64,000 nt of DNA, taken from Escherichia coli (GTDB lineage: Bacteria > Pseudomonadota > Gammaproteobacteria > Enterobacterales > Enterobacteriaceae). Position numbers and translations under genes: made by a program. Position 1 is the first letter of the stretch, and the number at the start of each line of letters is the position of its first letter. Under the pieces are notes generated by a model. That model ran no database searches. It was given only the letters and a program-made list of their open reading frames with translations, and was not told where the DNA came from. Location: the NCBI RefSeq assembly GCF_002854065.1, contig NZ_CP024147.1. One strand, 5' to 3'. Of the stretch, positions 32,042-33,713 are shown piece by piece.

Positions 32042-32070
32042 TGAACTCTTTCTTCCCAGGCGAGTCTGAG
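32042..32070 (+). promoter_or_regulatory. Sigma-E type promoter of micA
   Basis: -35-like tgaactc and -10-like tctga with ~16-nt spacer ending a few nt before the MicA 5' end. Confidence 0.6.
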
Positions 32071-32075
32071 TATAT

Positions 32076-32148
32076 GAAAGACGCGCATTTGTTATCATCA
32101 TCCCTGAATTCAGAGATGAAATTTTGGCCACTCACGAGTGGCCTTTTT
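32076..32148 (+). ncRNA. micA: MicA (SraD) small regulatory RNA
   Basis: Sequence gaaagacgcgcatttgttatcatcatccctgaattcagagatgaaattttggccactcacgagtggccttttt recognised as MicA, including the terminator hairpin and U-tail. Confidence 0.9.
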
Positions 32149-32156
32149 CTTTTCTG

Positions 32157-33713
32157 TCAGGCGTGTTTTTCCAGCCACACCGCAAACGGTTCGGTATCTG
32201 CGGCTTCCATTTCCTGCTGACGGCGTTCAGATGCCTCGCGCTCGGCTACAAAATCCTCTTCGCGCAGAATTTCCAGCGGCTCTTCACGCAGCAGATTACG
32301 GTACGCTTCAGCAAACGCTTTGCCTGTTCCGCCAATACCAGTATCAATCATAGACCTTAAGATACGGGCAGAGAAAGTCAGATCGGGATTATCGAAGCAG
32401 GCGACCAGTTCATCACACACTTTCTGATACGCTTCGCCGCCGTTAATGCTATCCAGCGTTTGCGCGACGCGTTTCAGATCGCGGAACAGATCTTTACCCA
32501 CCTGCGGTAACGGGAACTGTGCGGTTTCGCAGCCGATACCCAGCGTCAGACCCGGTTTGCGACCTTCGAGGATCACCCGGTTCCAGTTAACGCGTGTACA
32601 GGCAAGTTCGCTACTGCTCATTTCCGGTGCATCAGCCAGCGCACACCAGACCATAAACAGGTCGAGGAATCGCACCTGCTGTTCATCTACACCAATCGGC
32701 GAGAACGGGTTGATGTCCAGCGAACGCACTTCAATATATTCAATGCCGCCACGTAACAGCGCATCAGAAGGCGACTCGCCGCTGCGGGTAACGCGTTTTG
32801 GACGAATCGGCGCGTACAGTTCGTTTTCAATCTGCAGCACGTTGCTGTTGATTTGCAGCCTCTTACCGTCTTTCTCAATACCAATCTTCGCGTACTCTTC
32901 CGATGGCGTTTTGATTGCCTGTTTAAGGCCCGCTACGTACTCGTAAAGATCGTTGAAGGTAATACCAAGATTGCTTTGCGATTTATTGGTATAGCCGAGG
33001 TCGCTCAAACGAAGAGAGGTCGCATACGGCAGGTAATACATACCGCACTCGGTTTTCTCAAACGGCAGCGACGTTGGTTTTCCTTGCAGGAAAGAAGAAC
33101 AAATCGCCGGAGATGCACCAAACAGATAAGGAATGACCCAACCGAAACGATAGTAATTGCGGATAACGCGGAAATAGCCCGCAGAAATTTTCTCTTTGGC
33201 ATCAGCGCCCGAGATATCACCGCACTTCGCTTGCCAGAATGCCATTGGCAAAGAGAAATTGTAATGCACGCCGGAAATGGTTTGCATCAGCGCGCCGTAG
33301 CGATTTTTCAGCCCTTCACGATACAGCGTTTTAAAGCGTCCGGTGTTAGAAGTGCCGTACTGTGCCAGTTCGATGTCCTGACCTTCTGCGATGTAGCATG
33401 GCATACTTAACGGCCACATCCGCTCATCGCCCATATTGCGCGCCGTATAACGATGCAGATCGCGCATAAAGGTCAGCATATGTTCAATATCACCATCCAC
33501 TGGTGTAATGAATTCCAGCAATGCTTCCGCAAAATCGGTAGTAATCCATTTGTGCGTCAGTGCGGAACCTAATGCTTCAGGATGACCTGTTGTTGCCAGT
33601 GTGCCATCAGCATTAACACGCAAAGTTTCGCGCTCCAGCCCACGCTGTATCCCCTTTAACGCCTGAGGATGTTTTTCCAGCCAGGCCAGCGCCTGTGATA
33701 CGTCCGGGATCAA
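32157..33713 (-). CDS. gshA: Glutamate-cysteine ligase
   Basis: 518-aa [34 protein letters not shown]...; initiation codon is TTG. Confidence 0.96.

Follow-up and report, generated by a model that had tools for sequence, protein, structure and literature searches.

The luxS-gshA intergenic region of an Escherichia coli chromosome carries the known small RNA gene micA

The luxS-gshA intergenic region of E. coli raises the question of what is encoded on the strand opposite to both flanking genes, and how the promoter and terminator of any such gene are fitted into so short an interval. The region was investigated within a window of 64 kb (the whole stretch of DNA analysed, 64,000 nucleotides). 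In this window luxS (S-ribosylhomocysteine lyase) occupies positions 31492-32007 (-), with its ATG at 32005-32007, and gshA (glutamate-cysteine ligase) occupies 32157-33713 (-), with its stop codon (tca on the + strand) at 32157-32159; both genes were assigned from the ORF list, BLAST and the K-12 annotation. An earlier sequence-only reading had placed the small RNA MicA and a sigma-E promoter between them.

Identity and position of the MicA RNA

An Rfam scan of positions 29000-35000, and then of the whole window, yielded a match to RF00078 at 32076-32147 (+) with 83.9 bits (gathering score 41, E=1.3e-12). The match covered model positions 1-75 of 75 and is therefore full-length and above the gathering score. 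When the interval 31995-32170 was aligned with E. coli K-12 MG1655 and O157:H7 TR01, every alignment column was identical (100%), and the K-12 counterpart is the annotated ncRNA micA (b4442, 2814802..2814874, 73 nt). Both results agree with the earlier statement that MicA is recognisable in full. Together with the predicted fold, they place the MicA sRNA (SraD), 72-73 nt in length, at 32076-32148 (+); its 3′ end is 32148 by the K-12 annotation and 32147 by the end of the Rfam match. The segment 32076-32148 (+) is almost certainly E. coli micA, a 72-73-nt Hfq-dependent trans-acting sRNA, and no result of the analysis spoke against this assignment. Sequence identity, promoter and terminator anatomy, fold, ompA complementarity, synteny and conservation were established in this analysis; sigma-E dependence, Hfq dependence, target repression and the processing of luxS mRNA by RNase III are known from published work on K-12, whose sequence is the same.

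MicA lies between luxS and gshA, both of which are encoded on the other strand. Its +1 is 68 nt away from the luxS ATG, and 34 nt lie between the end of the luxS ATG (32007) and the start of the -35 element (32042), in agreement with the approximately 35 bp reported before. The MicA 3′ end is separated from the gshA stop codon by 8 nt (end 32148, K-12) or 9 nt (end 32147, Rfam), and the 9 bp previously given for the U-tail was thus correct within 1 nt, depending on the 3′ end chosen. The same reading was headed by a promoter abutting the gshA stop. The abutment at 8-9 nt stood, but the element named did not: the terminator abuts gshA, and the promoter faces luxS.

Of 5426 complete E. coli genomes, 5423 contained the 301-nt interval 31950-32250 by BLAST; it was chromosomal in every case and at least 99% identical in 4500 of the complete genomes. 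The PGAP RefSeq record of O157:H7 TR01 carries no feature between luxS and gshA (NZ_CP033605.1 4059-4207, corresponding to window positions 32008-32156), where the sequence is identical to K-12 micA. Likewise, the annotations under the best 12 matches listed for 31950-32250 were gshA and luxS only. Although nearly every complete E. coli genome has the locus, it appears that micA routinely goes without annotation in the RefSeq records of the species. The locus itself is already known and fully characterised and holds no new biology. It serves as a positional anchor, by which the window is placed in the emrB-luxS-micA-gshA-yqaAB-argQZYV region of the E. coli chromosome, and it demonstrates that a known sRNA and its promoter could be recognised from raw sequence.

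Several other features were noticed in the window. A two-gene cassette at 29627-31443 (+), between emrB and the luxS 3′ end, is absent from K-12 and O157:H7 TR01 and was found on the chromosome in 1000 of the 5426 complete E. coli genomes, annotated just as 'RNA ligase family protein' and 'ATP-binding protein'. The product of its first gene has 235 aa, belongs to the RNA ligase family (PF09414, 3.7e-28) and contains an EKLDGEN motif; the gene overlaps the second by 4 nt. The product of the second gene, 370 aa long, has a P-loop kinase domain at its C terminus (AAA_33, 1.2e-31) and weakly resembles the Pnkp kinase domain; its N-terminal part weakly matches the CCA-adding/repair enzyme. Judged from these domain matches, the cassette looks like an RNA-repair-type pair; PADLOC returned no match for the two genes, and their assignment as a defence system was rejected on this ground. 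Downstream of yqaB, at 34925-35824 (-), a tRNA cluster of four identical-scoring tRNAs and one long tRNA corresponds to argQZYV and serV. The spacer lengths vary from strain to strain: measured from one tRNA start to the next, the distances here are 179, 139, 276 and 80 nt; in O157 TR01 they are 179, 139, 141 and 80 nt, and in K-12 the first two measure 275 and 139 nt. An RtT-like match at 34925-35000 reached 37.5 bits, below the gathering score of 45, and was clipped at the search boundary; the variable tRNA spacers may be RtT-like repeat units. Three matches to naRNA4 (RF02564) were obtained elsewhere in the window, at 7136-7213, 7226-7303 and 23342-23419 (all +), with 61.9-77.7 bits (gathering score 59.5); they represent REP/BIME-type repeats, two of which adjoin each other.

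Anatomy and conservation of the locus

For comparison, one genome per species was scanned with the exact 23-nt sequence of MicA nt 5-27, which gave at least 120 loci from Escherichia, Citrobacter, Enterobacter, Klebsiella, Yersinia, Serratia, Pantoea, Erwinia, Dickeya, Pectobacterium, Edwardsiella, Hafnia, Rahnella and other genera. Since nt 5-27 served as the search pattern, their conservation is given by construction and the comparative set is biased. The flanks of the 120 listed loci were searched by tblastn with LuxS and GshA of the window. A divergent luxS was found upstream in 116 of 120, the remaining four showing no LuxS match, mostly with an upstream flank that was too short, and a convergent gshA was found downstream in 112 of 120. 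The order luxS/micA/gshA was thus kept among these Enterobacterales loci wherever the flank suffices. The distance from the luxS ATG to the MicA +1 was 67-92 nt in 105 of the 116 loci and 122-179 nt in the other 11 (L009, L014, L028, L030, L033, L051, L058, L061, L075, L085 and L101), for example in Superficieibacter, Pluralibacter, Kluyvera and Pseudocitrobacter. The longer distance, compared with the shorter, implies an insertion of 50-110 nt between the micA promoter and luxS.

The sigma-E promoter consists of a -35 element tGAACTc at 32042-32048 (+) (consensus GGAACTT, PMC1804206), a 16-nt spacer at 32049-32064 (+), a -10 element TCTGA at 32065-32069 (+), 6 nt before the start site, and a discriminator GTATAT at 32070-32075 (+), followed by the MicA +1, a G at 32076 (+). 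This arrangement agrees with that of sigma-E regulon promoters, i.e. GGAACTT and a TCAAA-like -10 element with a conserved C, about 16 nt apart, and a start 5-6 nt further on. Upstream of it, at 32020-32041 (+), an AT-rich, UP-element-like tract, GGTAATTTTTTTAAAAATTTTC, overlaps, on the opposite strand, the 5′ leader of luxS; an AT-rich element 5′ of the micA -35 was described previously (PMC1851643, Fig. 3). Among the matches listed, 112 Enterobacterales sequences were aligned, and this T/A-rich block was conserved across them. The AAC of the -35 element (32044-32046) and the -10 bases T32065, C32066 and A32069 were invariant in the same alignment, the invariable C of the micA -10 box having been highlighted before (PMC1851643).

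A loose sigma-E pattern, GAACT-N15-18-TCTGA, occurred once in the 64-kb window (32043-32069), and at least one match was also obtained in 26 of 100 shuffles, indicating that the pattern is not rare in itself. The promoter is more than a chance match because the mapped +1 follows it at 6 nt and because it is invariant across species. In published work, MicA was undetectable after deletion of rpoE and was induced by overexpression of sigma-E and by envelope stresses, and its induction in stationary phase required ppGpp (PMC1851643). Salmonella micA promoter fusions dropped to background without rpoE (PMC1804206), and MicA has been seen on Northern blots of K-12 and MC4100 strains (PMC1851643, PMC4618604). 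The assignment of a sigma-E promoter to MicA was therefore upheld, by its GAACT-16-TCTGA-6-G geometry, by the invariance of the core bases and by the strict sigma-E dependence of the same sequence in the literature. On the opposite strand, a sigma-70-type promoter ATGATA-18-TATACT at 32098..32069 (-) was the only such match in 31400-32700, at chance level (1 found versus 0.8 expected). As a luxS promoter it is at odds with the published luxS 5′ ends and was rejected; the published ends overlap MicA by 14-15 nt, and a proximal fragment from -84 to +6 had no promoter activity (PMC2956633).

The predicted fold of MicA has a free energy of -20.5 kcal/mol (z = -2.98), and none of 200 shuffles was equally stable. 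The minimum-free-energy fold equals the Rfam structure with a weak additional 4-bp hairpin at the 5′ end, and the architecture is that of MicA: a single-stranded 5′ region, a first stem-loop, an A/U linker and a terminator hairpin with a U-tail. Stem-loop 1 (MicA nt 23-44; Rfam, fold) lies at 32098-32119 (+) and is followed by the single-stranded A/U-rich linker AAUUUU at 32120-32125 (+), the site protected by Hfq in a published footprint (PMC4618604). The terminator scan located a Rho-independent terminator at 32126-32148 (+), with a 7-bp GC-rich stem and a 4-nt loop (32126-32143) and a U-tail (T-run 32144-32148); T-rich DNA past the T-run extends to 32153. Hfq footprinting covered the linker between the MicA stem-loops, and the poly-U tail was named as a likely second site (PMC4618604). 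Both sequences are present here as putative Hfq sites.

Across the 112 listed sequences, 95.5% of cells were paired when all MicA stems were counted. The pairs of stem-loop 1 were preserved in 90-95% of cells, with slight covariation. Nine of the 15 pairs never varied, and two-sided changes were confined to two of them, the seventh terminator pair (A-U 91, U-A 12, G-C 3) and the loop-closing pair of stem-loop 1. The terminator stem GGCCAC/GTGGCC was invariant and the U-tail mostly so. With stems that scarcely vary, the covariation test for the most part said little about the structure.

Alternative readings of the locus

A coding function was considered, in which the region would specify a small protein and not a non-coding RNA. 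The mechanical ORF list does contain a 48-aa ORF at 32074-32220 (+) and a 46-aa ORF at 31995-32135 (-). Transcription, however, begins at G32076, 2 nt past the first base of the ATG at 32074, so that the transcript lacks this codon, and the + strand frame would extend past the terminator into antisense gshA. The sole internal AUG (MicA nt 41-43) has no stop codon ahead of the terminator, and conservation follows the features of the RNA (seed, stems and U-tail) with no codon periodicity. A small protein is thus next to impossible, and this reading was excluded on the grounds that the ATG lies outside the transcript and the internal AUG lacks a stop. It is also conceivable that the hairpin at 32126-32143 serves mainly gshA, as a bidirectional terminator or 3′-end stabiliser, and that the conserved abutment reflects this shared use. 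The first T-run lies 3-9 nt from the gshA stop in 93 of 112 listed species and within 22 nt in 111 of 112, the terminator scan of 31400-32700 showed no second terminator-like site on the - strand after gshA, and an A-rich run precedes the hairpin on that strand. On the - strand, however, the sequence after the hairpin, AAAATTTCATC, makes a poor U-tract, and no terminator was called there by the scan; moreover, luxS transcripts that start at P1 inside gshA read through the hairpin, which is therefore leaky in this direction (PMC2956633). A main role in gshA termination is unlikely, and a bidirectional gshA terminator would in any case supplement the MicA reading and not displace it. A search of the literature turned up no paper in which micA or gshA is connected with a bidirectional terminator. 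More generally, the short conserved gap may reflect a functional coupling of micA and gshA beyond compaction, a proposal we regard as very unlikely and of which no description, as a shared 3′ end or as interference, was found in the literature search. Either gshA mRNA might end in the MicA terminator hairpin, or convergent transcription driven by sigma-E might disturb the final stage of gshA transcription or translation. Such convergent interference, if true, would link envelope stress to glutathione synthesis.

The remaining alternative is that micA acts mainly as a cis-antisense RNA against luxS, with RNase III cutting the duplex and thereby setting the levels of luxS mRNA isoforms. The published luxS P1 start, a sigma-S-dependent G at -332 from the luxS AUG (PMC2956633), was computed to lie at 32339 (-) inside gshA. 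The base at this position is a G on the - strand and its flank agrees with primer KU41A of the same study, so that P1 transcripts span the whole of micA in antisense. A shorter luxS species, R3, needs both MicA and RNase III, while the LuxS protein is unchanged (PMC2956633), and the divergent luxS is retained in nearly all listed loci, as described above. Against antisense action as the main role stand the invariant MicA 5′ seed, which is complementary to ompA, a distant genomic target, and the trans-acting role documented for many targets (PMC4618604). As the main function of micA it is rather unlikely; the cis-antisense role is best seen as real but secondary, an extra activity and no alternative to the main role.

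Target pairing and relation to known systems

The preferred reading, a trans-acting MicA, is in agreement with the predicted pairing to ompA. The target-pairing region, MicA nt 8-24 in the single-stranded 5′ part (32083-32099, +), was predicted to pair with K-12 ompA -21..-6, which spans the Shine-Dalgarno region, at -23.1 kcal/mol, and 3 of 1000 shuffles were as good; the energy was computed with the MicA 5′ 30 nt only and with the K-12 ompA sequence, as ompA lies outside the window. The 5′ part of the RNA is thus complementary to the ompA translation-initiation region. When full-length MicA was paired with ompA and intramolecular structure was ignored, the predicted duplex was too long to be realistic, and 19 of 500 shuffles were as good. 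The target-pairing region was invariant in the alignment of the listed loci, partly by construction, nt 5-27 being the search pattern. In published experiments on the identical sequence, repression of ompA by MicA was Hfq-dependent; MicA and RybB speed up omp mRNA decay (PMC1804206), and further targets of MicA including phoPQ, as well as its dimerisation, have been reviewed (PMC4618604).

Under envelope stress or in stationary phase, sigma-E RNA polymerase would start at G32076 from the promoter at 32042-32069, and transcription would end at the intrinsic terminator 32126-32148. Nucleotides 8-24 of the RNA would base-pair with the ribosome-binding region of ompA mRNA and with other envelope-related mRNAs; this pairing would block translation and hasten decay, which would lower the outer-membrane protein load. 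MicA would also form a perfect duplex with long luxS leaders, since micA is antisense to the leaders that start inside gshA, and this duplex would be cleaved by RNase III.

The earlier description of a MicA of about 72 nt under sigma-E control in a luxS-micA-gshA arrangement as established knowledge was borne out by the literature, in which the transcript measures about 70 nt (PMC1851643, PMC1804206, PMC2956633, PMC4618604). Among known systems, K-12 micA (SraD/psrA10; RF00078; b4442) is identical to the locus described here in promoter, RNA and terminator sequence. Its neighbours and spacing are also the same, the +1 lying 68 nt from the luxS ATG and the gshA stop 8 nt beyond the annotated 3′ end; the sole local difference is the two-gene insertion between emrB and the luxS 3′ end, about 630 bp upstream of the micA promoter. 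RybB, the other sigma-E-dependent Hfq-binding sRNA of enterobacteria, resembles MicA in its near-consensus sigma-E promoter and its RNA of about 70-80 nt, and shares with it a 5′ seed, a Rho-independent terminator and the repression of omp mRNAs (PMC1804206). RybB nevertheless belongs to another sequence family and another locus, and the Rfam scan of the 64-kb window gave no RybB match. MicA resembles cis-encoded antisense RNAs that are processed by RNase III in its full complementarity to the long luxS leaders, with which it forms a duplex that is a substrate of the enzyme (PMC2956633). Unlike those RNAs, MicA has a documented physiological output that consists of imperfect pairing with distant targets, LuxS protein being unchanged.
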